A DNA stretch of 62,972 nt, the filler included. It is 4 parts of 4 records of this genome, joined end to end, with 100 filler letters (N's around TTAATTAATTAA, not from the genome) between each part and the next. Parts side by side here need not be neighbours in the genome. Positions count along the whole stretch, not along the records: positions 14,308 to 44,308 come from SRR20825019_2098; 3 more parts are not named here. The stretch is one strand, 5' to 3'. Under the pieces are notes generated by a model. That model had not been told where the DNA came from. It searched no databases and saw only the letters and a program-made list of their open reading frames with translations. Position 1 is the stretch's first letter; every line of letters starts with the position of its first letter. Shown piece by piece: positions 2,070-57,480 of the stretch. The translations under genes and the position numbers were made by a program.

Positions 2070-3390
2070 TCAGCCCATGAAGGGATAGTTGCCAGGAAGA
2101 CCATACCTGCACACCATATTAGCACAAGAAGAACAACATTCAATACGAAACATACCCTTCGGATGGAACACCTGAACCATCCTCAGAAGGCACCGGGCCA
2201 TAGAAAGCAGCACCCGACATTCCCATAGGATGAGACCAAGCCATGATCTGAGATGGATGCGGCAGCATAGCATGCAAGGGCATCTGCTGCTGCGGTGCCA
2301 TCGGAGCACCAAACATGGGCAATGAAGCCGCGTCAGGGGACCCGGTCAGAACAGAGCGGAGCCCGGGATTGTACGACCCGTGGGACGGATAACCCGCAGT
2401 TGGTGATGCGCCCATCCCGCTGCCCGGAGACCACATATTCATGGGATGATACGGATAGTAAGGAGAAGCCGGATTGCGATAATAATATGCCGAGTAAGGG
2501 TCCTTTGGCGCGTACGGATTCATGGGGTTATCCGGATGCAACGGGCTCATTGGTGACCGGGCGTCATGGTGGGGGTTTAGCGGATTCATCGGGTGGTTCG
2601 GGTGCCAAGGGGATTCCGGATTATAAAATGGAGACGCGCCGCCGTTCGAATAGTAAGCGGCAGGACCCTCGTGCATCATGATGTTCTGCGGCGAACGAAC
2701 AAACGGATACATCCCTGGAGTCTCCTCAACAGACGAGCCGCTCTCCCTAACCCATAAGTTGCGTGCAGATGAAGGCGACGCCCCCGGATTGTATTCCCTA
2801 TGCATCCACTTCGTGAGTGGCCTTCCGCCCTCGCGAGGCTCGGGCCCAAATCCACGATAGTGTAGATCCCAGCCAAACTGGCCAGGATCCGAGAACATCT
2901 GTCCCCCTTCTCCTGCGCCCACAGCCTGGCCACTGGGATAGATTCCAGGCGTATACATTCCAGGCAGCACACCACCAGATGGAGGAGGCGTTCCATCACC
3001 ATATCCCACAATACCCTTCGCATGCATCGCATAAGGATACCCTCCAGTATCCAGCTCCTCATTCATCTCGGGAGCTTCAGCCATTTGCTTCTGCTTTTCA
3101 TCCATGGCCACTGCTTCGGCATTCTCAGGAACAGCAGATGGCTTTTCATCAAGACCCAGGCTTTCTTCATCGACAATCTTCCTTTCGTCATGCTTGACTT
3201 TTTCGTTCCTCGCCTTCAAGGTAGCTGCTGCTGCCTGTTGGGTAAAGAGACGCTGTGTCCCGTACACACGTTCGTCGGCATTGTCTGCCTCTTCCATGGC
3301 TTCCTCCTGAGTGATCCCGCGCAAGGGTGTCATCCCCAGCGAGACCCCCAAAAGGGACAAGAGCAGGAGCCACGTGACTGTCCGTCGCAT
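2070..3390 (-). CDS. Secreted low-complexity protein (signal peptide, acidic region, Pro/Gly/His/Asn/Tyr/Met-rich C-terminal half); 2 exons
   Basis: ATG at 3390 gives the signal peptide MRRTVTWLLLLSLLGVSLG. A 49-nt GTATGT..TGCAG intron at 2155-2107 restores the ending EGYGLPGNYPFMG* with stop at 2070-2072. Confidence 0.7.
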
Positions 3391-13254: not shown

Positions 13255-14163
13255 ATGGGGAAGGACAAGAAGAAGCAAGGCTCCAGAGCCTTGAGAGAAG
13301 GCTTGCTTCAGAGGGCCTCTCAGGAGTCTATGGAGCTGGTGTCCCGCCAAAGCTCTGGCCTGACCAAGAATGTTAGCATGGCACCTAGTGACTGTGCTTT
13401 TGGTGAGGAAGACAACATCACCTGTTGTGAATGCATCCCGGGAAGCAGCCTGATTGCTGCTGGCTCCATAGATGGTAAGGTGTTCCTTTACAATGCTTTG
13501 ACGGGTTTGGCGGTTGCGAAGGTGGATGCTCATGGCACCGATCTTGTCAACCATGTCGCTGTCTCGCGTTCCTATGTCGTTTCTTGCGGGGACGACTGCA
13601 ACGCTGTGATTTGGAGAATTGAGGGGGACAGCACGAAGGTTTCGTTGAAAAAAATGAAAGTTCTCAAGGGCTCTGGCTCGATTCTTTATGGAGAGGTTTC
13701 TCCCAACCAGGAGTTTGTTGTAACTTGCTCGTCGGCTGGGTGCGTTGATCGGATAGCGCGCTTTGAGAAGGTCTGACTTCAATATGTAGTATCGCGAGAG
13801 TGTGGGCTTTAGATAGTGGCGGTGAGATAGGAACGCTCTTGCAAAAGCTTGACGCCGACAGTGGCACCGTGGGAATCTGCAGGATCACTCCAGGTAATGG
13901 TATACCTACAATGGAGGTTTCTCGTCGTTGACGGGTTCGCAGATGGACTTTCTGTCATCACTGGCCACTCGGATGGAGACGCCGTGGTGTGGAGTATATC
14001 CACTGGAAAGGAGGTTTTCAGGCTTGAAGGTCATACGCAGACTGTAACTGATCTTGCCGTAACTCCTGACTGCTCCCGCGTCGTCACCACCTCCTACGAC
14101 GGATACGTTCGTGTGTGGTCCCTCCTCAACGGAGAGGAGCTGGAACTGCTTGATTGGCATAAC
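13255..14163 (+). CDS. WD40-repeat protein, 3' truncated by contig end
   Basis: WD motifs AAGSIDGKVFLYN, SCGDDCNAVIWR and LEGHTQTVTDLAVTPDCSRVVTTSYDGYVRVW. Introns at 13740-13789 and 13894-13942; a further GTGAGT donor at 14164. Confidence 0.88.
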
Positions 14164-14207
14164 GTGAGTAGGCCCAACGGCCGGGGGGGGGGGGGGGGGG
14201 GGGGCCC

Positions 14208-14307
14208 NNNNNNNNNNNNNNNNNNNNNNNNNNNNNNNNNNNNNNNNNNNNTTAATTAATTAANNNNNNNNNNNNNNNNNNNNNNNNNNNNNNNNNNNNN
14301 NNNNNNN
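14208..14307. other. Artificial contig linker
   Basis: 44 N + TTAATTAATTAA (stops in all frames) + 44 N; base composition and gene style change across it. Confidence 0.99.
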
Positions 14308-14362
14308 ATAGCGCACCTGATTACGGCTCAGGAGGTTCCAGGTTTGAATCCTGGCAAGGTCA
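14308..14362 (+). tRNA. tRNA-Arg(ACG), 5' part missing at contig edge
   Basis: Anticodon arm CCTGA-TTACGGC-TCAGG (ACG at 14323-14325), T arm CCAGG-TTTGAAT-CCTGG, acceptor 3' strand CAAGGTC-A. Confidence 0.9.
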
Positions 14363-16201: not shown

Positions 16202-16339
16202 ACTATTTTGTTTCTACCCCTATAATTTTAGGGGGTGATTGCTTTATTTTTGCAATTGATATAAATTAAATTGTAAAAAATAGGGGGTTGTTTTGTTTTT
16301 TGTATATTTTTGCATTGTCAAATAATAAAAACAAAAGCG

Positions 16340-18526
16340 ATGCCAACTTTAAGATTTCATGCCATTAAGGAAACGTACAAAAGAATTCCAGTACCAGTAA
16401 CAGAACCAGAAAGACGTTCCGAGATTTTTGGAAAAAACGTGTTTAATGAAGGTGCAATGCGCCAGTATCTTACAAAAGATTCATTTAAAAGTGTTATGGA
16501 TGCCATTGAAAATGGGTCTAAAATAGAGCGTCATATAGCAGATCACATTTCGACTGGGATGAAGGAGTGGGCAATTGGAAAAGGAGCTACGCATTATACA
16601 CACTGGTTTCAACCTTTAACTGGTGCAACAGCGGAAAAACACGATGCTTTTTTTGAAACAATAGATAACGGTCAGGCTATTGAGAAATTTGGTGGCGGAC
16701 AATTAGTACAACAAGAGCCAGATGCTTCAAGTTTTCCGAATGGTGGAATACGAAATACGTTTGAAGCTAGAGGATATACCGCTTGGGATCCTACATCGCC
16801 TGCTTTTGTGTATGGAACTACCTTGTGTATACCAACGGTTTTTGTTTCATATACAGGAGAAGCGCTAGATTATAAAACGCCTTTGCTTCGTGCGTTACAA
16901 TCTATAGATAATGCAGCAACTGCTGTGGCAAAGTATTTTGATAAGAACGTAACTAAAGTAAATGCAACCTTAGGGTGGGAGCAAGAATACTTTTTGGTAG
17001 ATAGTGCTTTGGCTGCATCACGTCCAGATATTTCATTGGCAGGTAGAACGCTGTTAGGGCATTCTTCAGCAAAAGGACAACAGTTGGATGATCATTATTT
17101 TGGATCGATACCTTCAAGAGTGCTTAATTTTATGCGTCAATTGGAAACGGAATGTATGTTACTTGGTATTCCTGTGAAAACAAGACATAATGAAGTTGCG
17201 CCAAACCAATTTGAACTAGCTCCTATTTTTGAAGAAACGAACTTAGCGGTAGATCACAACTCCTTATTGATGGATTTAATGCATAAAGTTGCTGAAAAAC
17301 ATAACTTTAAGGTTCTTTTTCATGAAAAACCTTTTGCAAATGTAAACGGAAGTGGGAAGCATAATAACTGGTCGTTAGCAACAAACACGGGTGTTAACCT
17401 TCTAGGGCCAGGAAGTACACCAATGAAGAACCTTCAGTTTCTTACCTTCTTTATTAATACACTTAAAGCGGTTAATGAGCATGAAGAACTATTGAGAGCA
17501 TCGATTGCAAGCGCGAGTAACGATCACCGTTTGGGTGCAAATGAAGCTCCACCAGCAATAATTTCAGCATTTATTGGTTCACAGTTAACGGATGTGCTTG
17601 ATGAGCTTGAAAAAGTAACCAGTGGTAAACTTTCACCGCAGGAAAAAACAGATCTTAAGCTGAATGTGGTTGGCAAAATTCCAGAAATTCTTTTAGATAA
17701 TACAGATAGAAATAGAACGTCTCCGTTTGCTTTCACAGGAAATAAGTTTGAGTTCCGTGCGGTAGGTTCTACTGCAAACTGTGCGAACCCAATGACAATT
17801 TTGAATGCAATTGTTGCAAGACAACTAATAGATTTCAAAGAAGAAGTTGATGCATTGATAAAAAATAAGAAGATGAAGAAGGATGATGCCATCTTCAATG
17901 TTCTTAAAGAGTATATAAAAGATTCGAAAAGGATTCGATTTGAAGGTGATGGTTATGGTGAGGCATGGGAAAAGGAAGCTGCGAAGCGTGGTTTGAGCAA
18001 TCATAAAACAACACCTGAAGCATTGAAAGCGAAAGTTTCTAAAAAGACGATTTCACTTTTTGAAGGGCTTGGCATTATGAGCAAAATTGAACTTGAAGCT
18101 CGTTATGAAATTGAAATGGAGGATTATGCAATGCGTATTCAAATAGAAGGACGTATTCTAGGTGACATTGCACGAAACCATGTAATACCAACAGCAATTC
18201 GTTATCAGAATATTTTGATTGAAAACGTTCGTGGGTTAAAGGATATATACGGAACGGACTTTAAAAAGCTATCTAAGGAACAGATGGTTCTAATTGAGGA
18301 GATTAGCGAGCATATTGCTAAGATTAACAAGGGAATTACTGATATGATTGAGGCTAGAAAGAAGTCTAATAAGCTAGAAAATATAGAAAAGAAGGCATTT
18401 GCGTATTGTGAAGAAGTAAAACCATTCTTTGAAGTAATTAGATACCATTGTGATAAGCTGGAACTTTTAGTTGATGATGAAATATGGCCATTAACTAAGT
18501 ACAGAGAGCTTTTGTTCACTAAATAA
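16340..18526 (+). CDS. glnA: Glutamine synthetase type III
   Basis: THYTHWFQPLTG..AEKHD, EPDASSFPNGG, HNEVAPNQFE, HEKPFANVNGSGKHNNWS, DRNRTSPFAFTGNKFEFR; about 728 aa. Confidence 0.96.
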   Translation: MPTLRFHAIKETYKRIPVPVTEPERRSEIFGKNVFNEGAMRQYLTKDSFKSVMDAIENGSKIERHIADHISTGMKEWAIGKGATHYTHWFQPLTGATAEKHDAFFETIDNGQAIEKFGGGQLVQQEPDASSFPNGGIRNTFEARGYTAWDPTSPAFVYGTTLCIPTVFVSYTGEALDYKTPLLRALQSIDNAATAVAKYFDKNVTKVNATLGWEQEYFLVDSALAASRPDISLAGRTLLGHSSAKGQQLDDHYFGSIPSRVLNFMRQLETECMLLGIPVKTRHNEVAPNQFELAPIFEETNLAVDHNSLLMDLMHKVAEKHNFKVLFHEKPFANVNGSGKHNNWSLATNTGVNLLGPGSTPMKNLQFLTFFINTLKAVNEHEELLRASIASASNDHRLGANEAPPAIISAFIGSQLTDVLDELEKVTSGKLSPQEKTDLKLNVVGKIPEILLDNTDRNRTSPFAFTGNKFEFRAVGSTANCANPMTILNAIVARQLIDFKEEVDALIKNKKMKKDDAIFNVLKEYIKDSKRIRFEGDGYGEAWEKEAAKRGLSNHKTTPEALKAKVSKKTISLFEGLGIMSKIELEARYEIEMEDYAMRIQIEGRILGDIARNHVIPTAIRYQNILIENVRGLKDIYGTDFKKLSKEQMVLIEEISEHIAKINKGITDMIEARKKSNKLENIEKKAFAYCEEVKPFFEVIRYHCDKLELLVDDEIWPLTKYRELLFTK

Positions 18527-18681: not shown

Positions 18682-19860
18682 ATGAGTAAGGAAATTTCTA
18701 AACGCTACGCACAACGAGGCGTTTCTGCCGGTAAAGAAGATGTGCATAATGCCATAAAGAATGTTGACAAAGGCATTTTTCCGAAGGCATTCTGTAAAAT
18801 TGTTCCAGATTATCTAACAAACGATGCTGATTATTGTTTGATTATGCATGCTGATGGCGCAGGTACAAAATCTTCTTTGGCATATACCTATTGGAAAGAA
18901 ACTGGAGATTTATCTGTTTGGAAAGGCATAGCACAAGATGCTTTAGTGATGAATATTGACGACCTATTGTGTGTTGGTGCGGTAGATAATATCATGCTTT
19001 CTTCAACAATTGGACGTAATAAGAGCCTTATTACAGGAGATGTTATTTCTGCAATTATTAATGGCACGGAAGCGTTAATTGCTGAAATGAAAACCTTTGG
19101 TGTAACCATTCATGCTACAGGTGGTGAGACCGCTGATGTTGGGGATTTGGTGCGTACTATAATTGTAGACTCTACTGTTACTGCGCGCATGAACCGTAAG
19201 GATGTTATAGACAATGCAAATATAAAACCAGGCGATGTTATTGTTGGTTTGGCTTCTTTTGGGCAAGCTACTTATGAAAAGGAATATAACGGAGGTATGG
19301 GTAGTAATGGGCTTACTTCTGCAAGGCATGATGTTTTTGAAAAACAGTTAGCAACTAAATACCCAGAAAGCTTTGATGCTTCCGTACCAGAAGAATTAGT
19401 TTATTCTGGTTCAAAAAAACTACAAGATTCGGTTGTGGATAGCCCTTTGGATGCGGGAAAACTGGTACTTTCACCAACCCGAACCTATGCGCCTATTATT
19501 AAGGAAATTCTGTCGCAATTTACCAATAAAGAAATACACGGAATGGTGCATTGTAGTGGTGGAGCGCAGACAAAGATTCTTCACTTTGTGGAAAATCTTC
19601 ATATAATTAAAGATAATTTATTTGAAGCGCCTCCACTATTTAAGCTTATCCAAGCGGAAAGCAAAACAGAGTGGAAGGAGATGTATCAAGTGTTTAATAT
19701 GGGGCATAGAATGGAGCTTTATGTGCCTGAAGAAATTGCGGAAGCCATCATTAAAATTTCAAATTCATTTAATGTGGAGGCTCAAATTGTTGGTAGCGTT
19801 GAAGCTTCGGAAACAAAAAAGCTTACAATTAAATCTACATATGGGGAGTTTGTTTATTAA
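18682..19860 (+). CDS. purM: Phosphoribosylformylglycinamidine cyclo-ligase (AIR synthase), Bacteroidota type
   Basis: RYAQRGVSAGKEDVH, HADGAGTKS, MNIDDLLCVGA, GGETADVGD, EMYQVFNMGHRME. Confidence 0.93.
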   Translation: MSKEISKRYAQRGVSAGKEDVHNAIKNVDKGIFPKAFCKIVPDYLTNDADYCLIMHADGAGTKSSLAYTYWKETGDLSVWKGIAQDALVMNIDDLLCVGAVDNIMLSSTIGRNKSLITGDVISAIINGTEALIAEMKTFGVTIHATGGETADVGDLVRTIIVDSTVTARMNRKDVIDNANIKPGDVIVGLASFGQATYEKEYNGGMGSNGLTSARHDVFEKQLATKYPESFDASVPEELVYSGSKKLQDSVVDSPLDAGKLVLSPTRTYAPIIKEILSQFTNKEIHGMVHCSGGAQTKILHFVENLHIIKDNLFEAPPLFKLIQAESKTEWKEMYQVFNMGHRMELYVPEEIAEAIIKISNSFNVEAQIVGSVEASETKKLTIKSTYGEFVY

Positions 19861-19924
19861 AGCTAAGATTGTAATTAGCTTCAATAATAATGCAATGAAC
19901 CAAAGTCTGTTTGGCTTAAAGGGT

Positions 19925-20629
19925 TTAAATTTTGTAACCTTTAATTAGCTTATATTCTGTTGATTCTATTCCGTATTGCGATTTTACGGTATCTTTTATA
20001 GTTTGCGTACGTTTTGCAAGATCGTCGTATTGCGAGTTCCGTATATCTTTAGCGGGTTTTAATTGGCTATAGGCTGTTGTAACGGATGTGTTTGCGGCTG
20101 TTAAGGAATCTAACAACGTACTTAATTGTTCTAACGTTATTTTTGGGTTTGTGGGCTGGTATGCTGCTAAATAACTTGAGAGTGTAGCAATAATATCGAT
20201 AAAATAATGTGTTTGACTTCCGTAGGAGCGATGTGATTGAGATACAAATTCGCCTTCTTCATCTCTTTTTAGGTTTTTAGTGTTTTCACCTCTAATTTTG
20301 TTAACGAGATTGATAATATCTGTTGCTTGTTTGGATGTTTTACCAAATTTTGCTTTAATATAAGCAGCTATTGGAGAGAGGATTCTTGCTAAAGAAGTTG
20401 GGTCTTTTTGAAAAAGGTTTTGGCGAATATCTACTGCCAATGAGAACTGAGATTGTTTGTTAGCAATGATGTTGTTATTGCTTTCAATTTCTGAGATTAG
20501 TGCGTTGTACGCTACTACTGTGGCTGTTGGTGTTAGGGCAAGGTAGTCTGTAAAGTTGGTAAGATTTGTTGCTAGTTGCTCTGCATTGAATATGCGAGAT
20601 CCGAAGGTTTTTTCTGAGCGTGAGGCCAT
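19925..20629 (-). CDS. Hypothetical all-helical protein made of two ~110-aa internal repeats
   Basis: 234-aa ORF opposite to the flanking genes. The halves align: SEKTFGS/SHRSYGS, DIRQNLF/DIRNSQY, IKAKFGKTS/VKSQYGIES. Confidence 0.85.
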   Translation of the reverse strand: MASRSEKTFGSRIFNAEQLATNLTNFTDYLALTPTATVVAYNALISEIESNNNIIANKQSQFSLAVDIRQNLFQKDPTSLARILSPIAAYIKAKFGKTSKQATDIINLVNKIRGENTKNLKRDEEGEFVSQSHRSYGSQTHYFIDIIATLSSYLAAYQPTNPKITLEQLSTLLDSLTAANTSVTTAYSQLKPAKDIRNSQYDDLAKRTQTIKDTVKSQYGIESTEYKLIKGYKI

Positions 20630-20823
20630 GATTTCTAGTGTTTAAAAGTTAAACTTGTTTGTTTACATAGATACAGAGGGGAGTTAATTAATTTATAATC
20701 AATTGCTTATTGAAATTTAAGTCGCTTTAATTGATCTACCTAATGATTTTATGTTAAAGTTGATAATTTTTTGAACTTATGTAATTGATATTGTGAAAAT
20801 TACAATGTTGATTGTGGGTGTTA

Positions 20824-21012
20824 AAAATGGCTTTGTGTGAAATGAAATAAGCATTGTGTGAAGTAAAAGGAGCAATGCAGGAAGTGAAAATGGCTTTGCA
20901 GGAAATAAAAATAGCGTTGCAGAAGATTAAAAAGCCTTTGCAGGAAGTAAAAATGACTTTATGGGAACTAAAAATGCCATTGCGGGAAATGACAGGAGTA
21001 CTGCAAGAAATG
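20824..21012. repeat. Array of nine degenerate 21-bp tandem repeats, consensus ~AAAATGGCTTTGCAGGAAGTA
   Basis: Units start at 20824, 20845, 20866, 20887, 20908, 20929, 20950, 20971 and 20992 with no indels. Unit positions 1, 3, 11, 17 and 20 are invariant. Two further decayed units at 20782-20823. Confidence 0.92.
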
Positions 21013-21204
21013 TAAAGTAGTGAGTGTATTATACTATAGCCACTGTAAGGTATTTGGGGAATGATGCGGTGGATAATGTGTGGGTATTGTATAGGCGATT
21101 ATTAAAAAAGGGGGGTGAATAAAAGAAAGGAATACTTACTGATATTCCTGATTTTCTACAAATAGATTTTGCTCAAAAAATTGTAGCTTTGCACCCATTA
21201 TAAA

Positions 21205-22287
21205 ATGTATATGTTAGTCAGGCTTCAAATAATAAAACAACGTTTTGACGAGGTGAGCGACCTTATTATTCAACCAGATATAATAAGCGACCAAAAACGT
21301 TATATTCAGTTGAATAAAGAGTATAAAGACTTAAGAATATTGATGGACAAGCGATCGGAGTTTTTAGAGCTTACCGATAATGTTACTGAAGCCGAGGAAA
21401 TAATTTCAGATGGAAGCGATGCGGAGATGACTGAAATGGCTAAACTTCAACTTGAAGAAGCTAAAAACCGTTTGCCAAAACTAGAAGAGGAGATAAAGTT
21501 TCTATTAGTGCCAAAAGATCCTGAAGATGCTAAAAACGCAGTGATGGAAATTAGAGCAGGAACTGGTGGTGATGAGGCAAGTATTTTTGCGGGCGATCTT
21601 TTTAGAATGTACACAAAATACTGTGAAGGAAAAGGATGGAAAACCAACGTGATTGACTTTAATGAAGGTACAAGTGGAGGTTTTAAAGAAGTTCAGTTTG
21701 AAATTGAAGGTGAAGATGTGTATGGAACTTTAAAATTTGAAGCTGGTGTGCACCGTGTGCAACGTGTACCGCAGACTGAAACACAAGGGCGTGTGCATAC
21801 AAGTGCTGCTACGGTAATGGTTTTTCCAGAAGCAGAAGAATTTGATATTGAAATTAACCCAAAGGATGTTCGTGTAGACTTTTTCTGTTCATCAGGACCA
21901 GGAGGGCAGTCTGTAAACACAACCTATTCTGCAGTACGATTAACACACGTTCCTACAGGAATTGTTGCGCAATGTCAAGATCAGAAATCGCAACACAAAA
22001 ATAAAGATAAGGCTTTTAGAGTGCTTCGTTCTAGATTGTACGATCTTGAATTGGCAAAAAAACAAGCTGAAGATGCACTAAAACGTGGCTCTATGGTAAC
22101 AAGTGGAGACCGAAGTGCAAAAATTAGAACGTATAATTATCCGCAAGGGCGCGTTACCGATCACCGCATCAACTTAACGTTGTATAATCTTGGTAATATT
22201 ATAAATGGAGACGTTCAAGAAATAGTTGATGAGCTTCAATTGGTGAGTAATACTGAAAAATTAAAAGAAACAGGCGAAACTTTTTAA
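21205..22287 (+). CDS. prfA: Peptide chain release factor 1
   Basis: [21 protein letters not shown] (PxT motif), [19 protein letters not shown]. Confidence 0.98.
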
Positions 22288-22314: not shown

Positions 22315-23136
22315 ATGACCACAGATAAATTGATTTCAGAGATTAAGCGGAAAAATTCTTTTCTATGTGTAGGTTTGGATGTAGATATTGAAAAGATACC
22401 TACATTTCTTTTAAAAGAAGAAGACCCTATTTTTTCTTTTAACAAAGCTATTATAGATGCTACGCACGAGTTTGCGGTAGCATACAAGCCAAACACAGCT
22501 TTTTATGAGGCTTATGGCATAGCTGGTTGGAAATCGTTAGAGAAAACCATAAAATACTTAAACGAAACGTATCCAGAGGTATTTACAATTGCAGATGCAA
22601 AACGTGGTGATATAGGAAATACATCGTCTCGGTACGCTAAAGCTTTTTTTGAAGATTTAGGGTTTGATTCGGTTACTGTTGCGCCTTATATGGGTAAAGA
22701 TTCTGTAGAGCCATTTCTAGCTTTTGAAGATAAACATACTATTTTACTAGCGTTAACATCTAATGAAGGAGCTTTTGATTTTCAAACGCAGCAGGTTGAT
22801 GGGCAAGAATTGTACAAACAGGTTCTTGGTGTTTCAAAAGGATGGAAACATAGTGAAAATTTGATGTATGTGGTTGGTGCTACAAAGGCTGAGTATTTTG
22901 CAGAGATTAGAAAGATTATTCCTGATAGTTTTTTGTTAGTTCCTGGCATTGGTGCGCAAGGCGGAAACTTAAAAGATGTTTGTAAATATGGATTAACGAA
23001 ACAAGTTGGTCTGCTTGTGAATTCTTCACGAGGAATAATTTATGCTTCAAATAAAGAAGATTTTGCGGAAGCTTCAGCACAAGAAGCTAAAAGTATTCAA
23101 ATTGAAATGAAAACCATACTTGATGGAATTCGTTGA
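22315..23136 (+). CDS. pyrF: Orotidine-5'-phosphate decarboxylase
   Basis: [44 protein letters not shown]. Confidence 0.97.
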
Positions 23137-36477: not shown

Positions 36478-37302
<825 letters not shown>

Positions 37303-44308: not shown

Positions 44309-44408
44309 NNNNNNNNNNNNNNNNNNNNNNNNNNNNNNNNNNNNNNNNNNNNTTAATTAATTAANNNNNNNNNNNNNNNNNNNNNNNNNNNNNNNNNNNN
44401 NNNNNNNN
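44309..44408. other. Artificial contig linker
   Basis: 44 N + TTAATTAATTAA + 44 N. Confidence 0.99.
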
Positions 44409-57380: not shown

Positions 57381-57480
57381 NNNNNNNNNNNNNNNNNNNN
57401 NNNNNNNNNNNNNNNNNNNNNNNNTTAATTAATTAANNNNNNNNNNNNNNNNNNNNNNNNNNNNNNNNNNNNNNNNNNNN
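57381..57480. other. Artificial contig linker
   Basis: 44 N + TTAATTAATTAA + 44 N. Confidence 0.99.

Follow-up and report, generated by a model that had tools for sequence, protein, structure and literature searches.

How a gene of no named family comes to stand beside a strictly periodic stretch of DNA, and whether the product of the one acts on the other, is the question raised by the locus described here. The window, that is, the whole stretch of DNA analysed (62,972 nucleotides, filler included), carries in its part from position 14,308 to 44,308 a minus-strand gene for a 234-residue, predicted all-helical protein, referred to below as the family gene, and upstream of it an array of nine 21-bp units. 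A preliminary description, made from the letters alone, took gene and array to be one unit and listed three options, namely (a) a DNA-binding or polymerising protein with a phased binding array, (b) a protein with a repeat-derived RNA and (c) a protein with a small coiled-coil partner encoded by the array. Judged on the sequence comparisons presented here, option (a) is the best of the three, and we tentatively favour a reading in which copies of the family protein would line up head to tail on the array beside their gene, with two helical turns for each copy.

Gene and array occur together

The relation between gene and array was followed across 46 loci, comprising the window, nine loci from reference genomes, 20 from whole-genome searches, 14 metagenome contigs and two more from the genus. 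A locus was counted as carrying an array when Tandem Repeats Finder reported a period of 20-22, 41-43, 62-64, 84 or 105, over at least 52 bp and no more than 500 bp from the gene. By this rule, 41 of the 46 loci carry an array, which has at least five units in 34 of the 41; the five loci that fall outside the rule are a truncated gene remnant (L009), two with almost no flanking sequence (L029, L060), L022 with its short array of 2.3 units and L019, where the gene is intact. The same rule applied to 583,106 bases of control DNA, made up of 400 kb of the Aequorivita genome G001, the whole window and 30 release-factor loci, returned only the window's own array and one 42-bp repeat of 2.2 copies. 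In the 400 kb of G001 no 21-bp array exceeds 2.2 copies, and all four paralog loci examined in that genome (L003, L014, L017 and L038) carry an array. The 46 loci are not independent of one another, in that about a dozen share the unit of L005; 24 arrays have differing consensus units. The excess over the control bears out the expectation of the preliminary description that homologs would be enriched for neighbouring 21-bp arrays, and it supports the view that gene and array form one unit; a remark made there, on similar helical orphans beside short-period arrays in other Bacteroidota, proved right. Taken together, the comparisons support a self-contained accessory module made of gene and array.

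What is constant across these loci is the period and not the sequence. The 24 arrays with differing consensus units mostly have 0% indels, and the four arrays of G001 belong to three unit types. Units are 80-90% alike within arrays, and the association extends to proteins with only 25-35% identity and to two subfamilies. Where the gene is matched by the whole family profile, the array lies upstream at a gap of 25-255 bp, with L038 as the exception; in the sister subfamily, the array lies downstream in 10 of 13 genes, at a gap of 60-165 bp. Near-identical loci differ in unit number, which runs from 6.2 to 14.2, by whole units, and weak arrays of 2.5-3.5 units with 70-75% matches are present in L001, L002 and L061. 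Upstream of the gene in L037 (positions 2391-3143 of that locus), three arrays follow one another in series, one of 42-bp units (5.2 copies) and two of 21-bp units (10.4 and 7.7 copies).

The array in the window

Tandem Repeats Finder places three overlapping 21-bp rows across 20833-20990, the main one with 0% indels, and a second repeat search found eight in-register copies at a spacing of exactly 21 bp. Counting in register gives nine units at 20822-21010, each with 12-20 of 21 matches to the consensus; at least 11 of 21 matches to that consensus are reached by only 1.4% of all 21-mers of the window. The 16-nt unit pattern, with up to three mismatches allowed, has 14 matches in the window against 3.3 expected, and the top four of these lie inside the array, whose GC skew on the gene strand is -0.44. 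The first unit begins 192 bp from the ATG of the family gene, which confirms the indel-free array of nine degenerate units that had been placed about 195 bp upstream. The further remark that the array decays towards the gene is not clearly reflected in the counts, since the nearest unit has 18 of 21 matches and the weakest are the second and the last (12 of 21 each). In the family's arrays the units are asymmetric, with a mean dyad arm of 3.4 against 3.2 in shuffles and a half-unit repeat of 4.8 against 5.7. Dyad-symmetric cores, or two half-units per 21 bp, were considered and rejected for the family by these dyad and half-unit tests.

A duplicated helical protein in a large unnamed family

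The AlphaFold2 model of the window protein, with a mean pLDDT (predicted local distance difference test) of 93.9, has seven helices and no strand, arranged as an elongated bundle whose longest helix runs to 54 residues. Across the family, the N-terminal half aligns with the C-terminal half (hhalign probability 99.5%, E 3.7e-23, 102 columns), and the protein is, to judge from this alignment, an internal duplication of a helical module of ~110 residues. The alignment of the halves and the helices-only model together uphold the two-repeat helical protein of the preliminary description. The protein is also basic, with an isoelectric point (pI) of 9.3 in the window, a family median of 9.5 and a value of at least 8 in 61 of 65 members, and its Arg/Lys columns are conserved in the family. 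By arithmetic, the 54-residue helix is ~80 Å long and 21 bp of DNA ~71 Å.

No family beyond chance was found for the window protein in Pfam or NCBIfam, nor for the 65-member family alignment in Pfam, PHROGs or PADLOC, and 14 proteins of the sister subfamily gave only chance-level matches in family searches; the ESM Atlas matched only unnamed Bacteroidota clusters. With no characterised family found in Pfam, NCBIfam, PHROGs or PADLOC, the protein keeps its standing as an orphan of no described function. A match to LemA (2etd) in a profile search of the PDB (E 0.0017 over 72 residues) was set aside as too weak. The family itself is large, with 146 relatives among 615 candidates, nearly all of 234 or 241 residues and all unnamed, and, with a cut-off of E≤0.001, 505 representative clusters. 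The sister subfamily has proteins of ~240-270 residues, which match the C-terminal module of the profile twice. With one of them as query, 2794 of 3777 candidates matched at E≤1e-5; those with a name are all called 'hypothetical', and a Pedobacter genome often has several. Family and sister subfamily amount to thousands of unnamed proteins across Flavobacteriia, Chitinophagia and Sphingobacteriia, often several per genome. In G002, four family genes (five profile matches) lie on one strand within ~220 kb of contig 1 (3.61-3.83 Mb).

The locus and its counterparts in relatives

The features of the locus, with products of the flanking genes named by their Pfam matches, are the following.

16310-18526, plus strand: glutamine synthetase type III
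18682-19860, plus strand: AIR synthase-related protein
19861-19924, no strand: left edge of the lineage-specific segment, 64 bp from the AIR-synthase stop to the family-gene stop, with convergent gene ends
19925-20629, minus strand: family gene, a 234-residue open reading frame (ORF) with ATG start, stop codon included
20630-20821, minus strand: spacer between start codon and array, the presumed promoter region of the family gene
20822-21010, no strand: array, nine indel-free units of 21 bp, poor in G on the strand of the gene
21011-21171, no strand: remainder of the lineage-specific segment, from the array to the conserved release-factor promoter stretch
21172-21204, plus strand: right edge, outside the module, ~33 bp before the release-factor start and common to relatives without the module
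21205-22287, plus strand: class-I release factor (PCRF and RF-1)
22315-23136, plus strand: OMP decarboxylase

The AIR-synthase, release-factor and OMP-decarboxylase ORFs correspond to what we take to be purM, prfA and pyrF. A minus-strand gene amid plus-strand housekeeping genes had been described here, and this is confirmed, with the AIR-synthase and release-factor genes as its neighbours. The accompanying statement that integrase, transposase, reverse transcriptase and cas genes are absent nearby holds for the five flanking ORFs, to which the check was confined.

The order of AIR synthase, release factor and OMP decarboxylase is kept in relatives, and the family gene is present in none of 30 release-factor loci of relatives, 11 of which have the AIR synthase gene within reach. 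The release factor encoded in the part from 14308 to 44308 shares 96% identity with its counterpart in G001, to which L003 belongs. The gap between AIR synthase and release factor measures 873-911 bp in the two closest genomes (release factor 95-96% identical) and holds there a hydrophobic ORF of 237 residues; in other relatives the gap is 60-447 bp. This ORF (minus strand, 2673-3386 in L074, and in the same gap in L075, L077 and L086) has no Pfam family, and the module occupies its position. No 21-bp array was found in eight AIR-synthase-to-release-factor gaps examined. The array does not belong to the release-factor gene, and we did not encounter the arrangement that would have separated array from gene, namely an array upstream of prfA in relatives that lack the gene.

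When the whole gap is compared by blastn with those of relatives, only the last ~33 bp match (91% over 33 bp to L074, 93% over 29 bp to L075), and sequence inspection places an octamer resembling a -7 box at 21183-21190 within this right edge. At the other side, 19861-19924 has no similarity to the corresponding gap in close relatives. The GC content of the module is 0.32-0.36 and that of the flanking genes 0.37-0.40; since the module thus falls only slightly under its flanks, there is no clear signal of foreign DNA.

The family gene is found in 7 of 57 genomes of the genus. In the Aequorivita locus L104, it encodes a protein 75% identical to that of the window and again adjoins the AIR synthase gene; the array there has 12.3 units (86% matches), and the DNA of the two loci is 73% identical over 1095 bp. 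By position and similarity, L104 is the orthologous locus, its array renewed in place. Other Aequorivita genomes have a 65%-identical copy that precedes uvrB (L005), and further paralogs adjoin unrelated genes, recA-like and tsf-like ones among them. Across the compared loci, no conserved regulator gene was found next to the module.

Presumed promoter position, polarity and unit cores

In relatives, a sequence that matches exactly what we take to be the Bacteroidota -7 box consensus lies between array and ATG, at 75-93 nt from the latter (36 nt in L071). The spacer of the window has no exact match, only a near match or homologous block in the alignment. Within the window's own subfamily, the 300 nt upstream of each array were found to hold no exact -7 box on the gene strand. 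A promoter is thus presumed to lie between array and gene, and because -7 boxes occur there and none upstream, the array is probably outside the mRNA.

The arrays have a polarity that follows the gene. They are G-poor on the gene strand in 19 of 23 cases, whether they lie upstream or downstream, and of 276 unit pairs, those that are similar agree in gene-relative orientation in 36 cases and are reversed in 12. Within the ortholog group, a core of ~9 bp is common to the units and the rest, a spacer, varies; in L005, 18 of 21 unit positions are at least 80% conserved, the variable ones being 6, 16 and 17, and conservation in the window is patchier. The coding strands of the family genes themselves are A-rich (23 loci, for example 19928-20629, minus strand, of the window), with a mean GC skew of -0.18 that is negative in 21 of 23, and this skew is opposite to that of the plus-strand genes around the window locus.

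A possible protein-DNA filament and its alternatives

The reading that we favour starts from linkage, charge and geometry, which together suggest that the family protein may be what binds the array, and that the target would be DNA rather than RNA. The array would then serve as duplex, non-coding DNA. Its units are asymmetric and span exactly two helical turns apiece, and it lies upstream of the presumed promoter of the gene or, mostly so in the sister subfamily, just downstream of the gene. One two-module protein would sit on each 21-bp unit, head to tail and along a single face of the helix, its longest helix (~80 Å) coming near the length of one unit (~71 Å). Proteins bound in this way could build a cooperative nucleoprotein filament that would feed back on the neighbouring promoter, with changes in unit number tuning the dose. 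A wider and more doubtful possibility is that the family and its sister subfamily in general read constant-size 21-nt repeats, each paralog polymerising on a private array whose length would be heritable and tunable by slippage.

A number of observations weigh against this proposal. The intact gene of L019 has no array, and the array of L022 has only 2.3 units. A register of one protein module per helical turn is unsupported in the DNA, since there is neither a general dyad nor a half-unit repeat. A unit-like motif at the transcription start was sought and failed its test, the scores being 10.1 of 14 for a locus's own array, 9.7 across loci and 9.0 for shuffled sequence. In the consensus units, the distant paralogs L014 and L017 share their core with the ortholog group despite very different proteins, which would also fit a common binder encoded elsewhere, and the strand polarity of the arrays would also be compatible with a role as RNA. 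The protein has no DNA-binding fold that could be recognised, and Foldseek returned no match at E≤0.001 in the PDB or BFVD. The top structural matches by VIA-align are instead helical bimodular (HBM) sensor domains (McpZ, McpS, TorS and PilJ; Z 8.1-9.7 over ~180 residues), at a level where, for helical bundles, Z below ~13 may reflect only a common arrangement.

Four other explanations have to be weighed against the same data. A regulator encoded elsewhere, for example of LytTR type, might use the array as its multi-site operator or upstream element; the helical protein would then be the regulated product only, and its expression would be set, as by a phase-neutral rheostat, through units gained or lost. 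The placement of the array upstream of the -7 box in relatives, the conserved core and variable spacer of the units, their polymorphic copy number, the occurrence of one core beside very different paralogs and the lack of a recognised DNA-binding fold all agree with such an operator. It leaves unexplained the 11 arrays that lie downstream of the gene (in 10 of the 13 genes with a doubled C-terminal module and in L038), the one in L038 even lying behind a terminator-like hairpin; moreover, the 21-bp arrays are tied to one gene family rather than to many, with none in the 400 kb background of G001, and no regulator gene is conserved beside the module. We regard it as unlikely. Somewhat less likely again is that the array acts as RNA, as a sense, G-poor and unstructured stretch bound by the basic protein or serving for Rho loading or insulation. 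C exceeds G on the sense strand in 19 of 23 arrays and 21 of 23 genes, on either array side, the orientation of unit similarity is conserved, and the authors of the repeat class, in the portions of their papers available to us, also discuss transcription (PMC8161180, PMC8625621). Compared with shuffled sequences, RNA of the window array shows no structure signal (z -0.04 on the plus and -0.88 on the minus strand); the sense strand, which gains nothing over shuffles in folding, would be accessible to a binder. The placement of -7 boxes between array and gene in the window subfamily, with none within 300 nt upstream, speaks against this role, as do the terminator-like hairpin that separates gene from array in L038 and the lack of an Rfam match to the array, the one chance match (E 0.8) lying inside the gene. 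For option (b) in its original form, a repeat-derived structured RNA, the null results in Rfam and in folding against shuffles offer no support.

The array might also have no function of its own. It would then be a minisatellite with a single origin next to an ancestral gene, kept in being by slippage and hitch-hiking, and two-turn units would be tolerated since they leave neighbouring promoters undisturbed. Freely drifting unit sequences, the decayed arrays of L001, L002 and L061 and the intact, arrayless gene of L019 are all as this account would have them. It is nevertheless improbable, given that the association spans two subfamilies and proteins of 25-35% identity with units 80-90% alike and free of indels, and this persistence would call for continued renewal at the same place in many lineages. 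Very improbable, finally, is that the array encodes a heptad-repeat, coiled-coil partner peptide, for which the candidate in the window is a plus-strand ORF of 53 residues (20854-21015). The idea draws on the fact that 21 bp equal seven codons, on a frame that in the window stays open but for one stop at unit 2 and that is open in L003-L006 too, on L024 and L038, where the few variable sites fall mostly at one codon phase, and on an ORF of 231 residues with ATG on the same strand in L024. Against it, the tail of the ORF in L003-L006 crosses a 7-bp repeat whose copies number 3.7 or 4.7, which shifts the frame, and the homologous frame of L007 has two stops; synonymous changes are below expectation (0.00-0.19 against 0.16-0.22 in seven Aequorivita arrays), and three-base periodicity of variation is absent from most arrays. 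In L021 and L038 a start codon ahead of the repeats is missing from the best frames, the coding side and strand would have to differ between subfamilies, and the 53-residue ORF reaches only chance level in Pfam. Broken frames, few synonymous changes and missing starts thus disfavour option (c), and the array is probably non-coding.

Relation to known systems

An earlier paper by Subirana and Messeguer, in J Bacteriol in 2020, reportedly dealt with the class of constant-size repeats to which the present arrays bear comparison. In 2021, the same authors described tandem repeats of 20-21 nt, two helical turns, which they call enigmatic (Int J Mol Sci, PMC8161180). According to the parts of that paper available to us, the arrays are unrelated in sequence, with several families per genome, and generally encode no amino-acid repeats; the account proceeds by single genomes, mainly in Bacillus and other groups, and the authors propose either a protein whose polymerisation on DNA requires repeats of constant size, or else small RNAs (PMC8161180). 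The arrays studied here are alike in having a period of 21 bp with 0% indels in the window, and of 21, 42, 63 or 84 bp at related loci, and in showing no sequence conservation between arrays and several differing arrays per genome. They are unlike in that a single protein family goes with all of them. Those same parts of PMC8161180 connect the repeats with no neighbouring gene family, and a link may stand in its supplement or in the 2020 paper; our literature search on 21-bp or 21-nt repeats found no paper on this pair of gene and array.

The systems nearest to the module in logic pair a plasmid centromere with its binding protein or iterons with Rep; neither matches in fold, partners or context. 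The arrays of parC-ParR and sopC-SopB double as the operator of their own promoter and can lie upstream or downstream of the gene. With these type II centromeres (parC-ParR of pSK41 and R1) and with sopC-SopB of F, the module shares tandem direct repeats beside a protein gene, whose product in those systems coats the repeats cooperatively. ParR, however, is a ribbon-helix-helix dimer, whereas the family protein is all-helical without a strand in its model; no gene for an NTPase of actin-like (ParM) or Walker (ParA) type stands with the module, which is chromosomal, lies between housekeeping genes and occurs as several paralogous modules per genome. For pSK41, the ParR-centromere complex is superhelical and binding to the tandem repeats is cooperative, according to the part of the report available to us (PMC3074162).

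Plasmid iterons (R6K, P1, pSC101) are direct repeats of ~19-22 bp beside an autoregulated Rep gene whose product binds them. The present module, on the other hand, lies in conserved chromosomal synteny without a replicon context, its units differ between paralogs of one chromosome, and its protein has neither a recognisable winged-helix Rep fold nor a Pfam match, Rep families included. LytTR operators (AgrA, ComE, AlgR) consist of direct repeats of ~9 bp at 21-bp spacing, in two or three sites. A recurrence of ~21 bp is common to both, and a core of ~9 bp with a variable spacer may be, but there are 9-27 sites here and the arrays follow one family that is not a regulator. No LytTR gene was found linked to the module, in comparisons that included no search aimed at such genes.

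At the level of fold, the HBM sensor domains of chemoreceptors and TorS resemble the family protein in having two stacked helical modules over ~230 residues. The structure matches (8f7n, Z 9.7 over 184 residues; 2yfa, Z 8.5 over 182; 3i9w, Z 8.1 over 185; identity 9-11%) fall short of what counts as meaningful for helical bundles. HBM domains are periplasmic and flanked by membrane helices, whereas the family protein stands alone, and no signal peptide or long hydrophobic stretch was seen by eye in its translation.

The family protein is a candidate protein partner for a published and unexplained class of bacterial repeats, and because every array goes with one gene family, the matter is open to direct test. 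An Aequorivita isolate with several paralogs, of which the four examined each have their own array, offers a natural specificity matrix. Were binding to prove true, a large unnamed family would gain a function and a new DNA-reading architecture would be added to those known; the wider proposal of private arrays would further imply a new class of chromosomal protein-DNA filament modules, with a fold unrelated to ParR, ParB, Rep and LytTR. Were it to prove false, the arrays would still be a clean case of copy-number-variable elements constrained by helical phase beside a defined gene.

Other observations

Aequorivita is rich in intergenic arrays of 7-bp units, with 14 period-7 rows in the 400 kb of G001 (L040-L059). 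Such arrays were seen around L003-L008, L038 and L015, and in L003-L006 they flank the module on both sides, with copy numbers of 3.7 and 4.7. They are similar to the heptamer direct repeats reported, in the part of the source available to us, from Beggiatoaceae, Cyanobacteria and five Bacteroidetes (PMC4679880).

Among contigs from three runs guessed to be RNA, two overlap the array and were not used as evidence. One covers 20851-21078. The other starts at 20995, in the last unit, and enters the release-factor gene; its start may mark an upstream 5' end of a plus-strand release-factor transcript. The 21 loose letters before position 20995 in this contig resemble what is presumably the end of a template-switching oligo, and they too were not used as evidence.

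The four pieces of the window, separated by N fillers (paired 44-N runs) at 14208-14307, 44309-44408 and 57381-57480, have GC contents of ~0.53, 0.35, 0.39 and 0.66 and probably derive from separate organisms or replicons. The first piece ends in a run of 22 G (14183-14204), and an ORF at 13849-14259 (plus strand), in this GC-richer piece, resembles WD40-type repeats by eye. On the minus strand at 36478-37302, an ORF of 274 residues with a signal-peptide-like start contains, in low-GC DNA, a (CCG)n tract (36739-36818) that gives ~20 glycines, a run that looks like an ordinary flexible linker.

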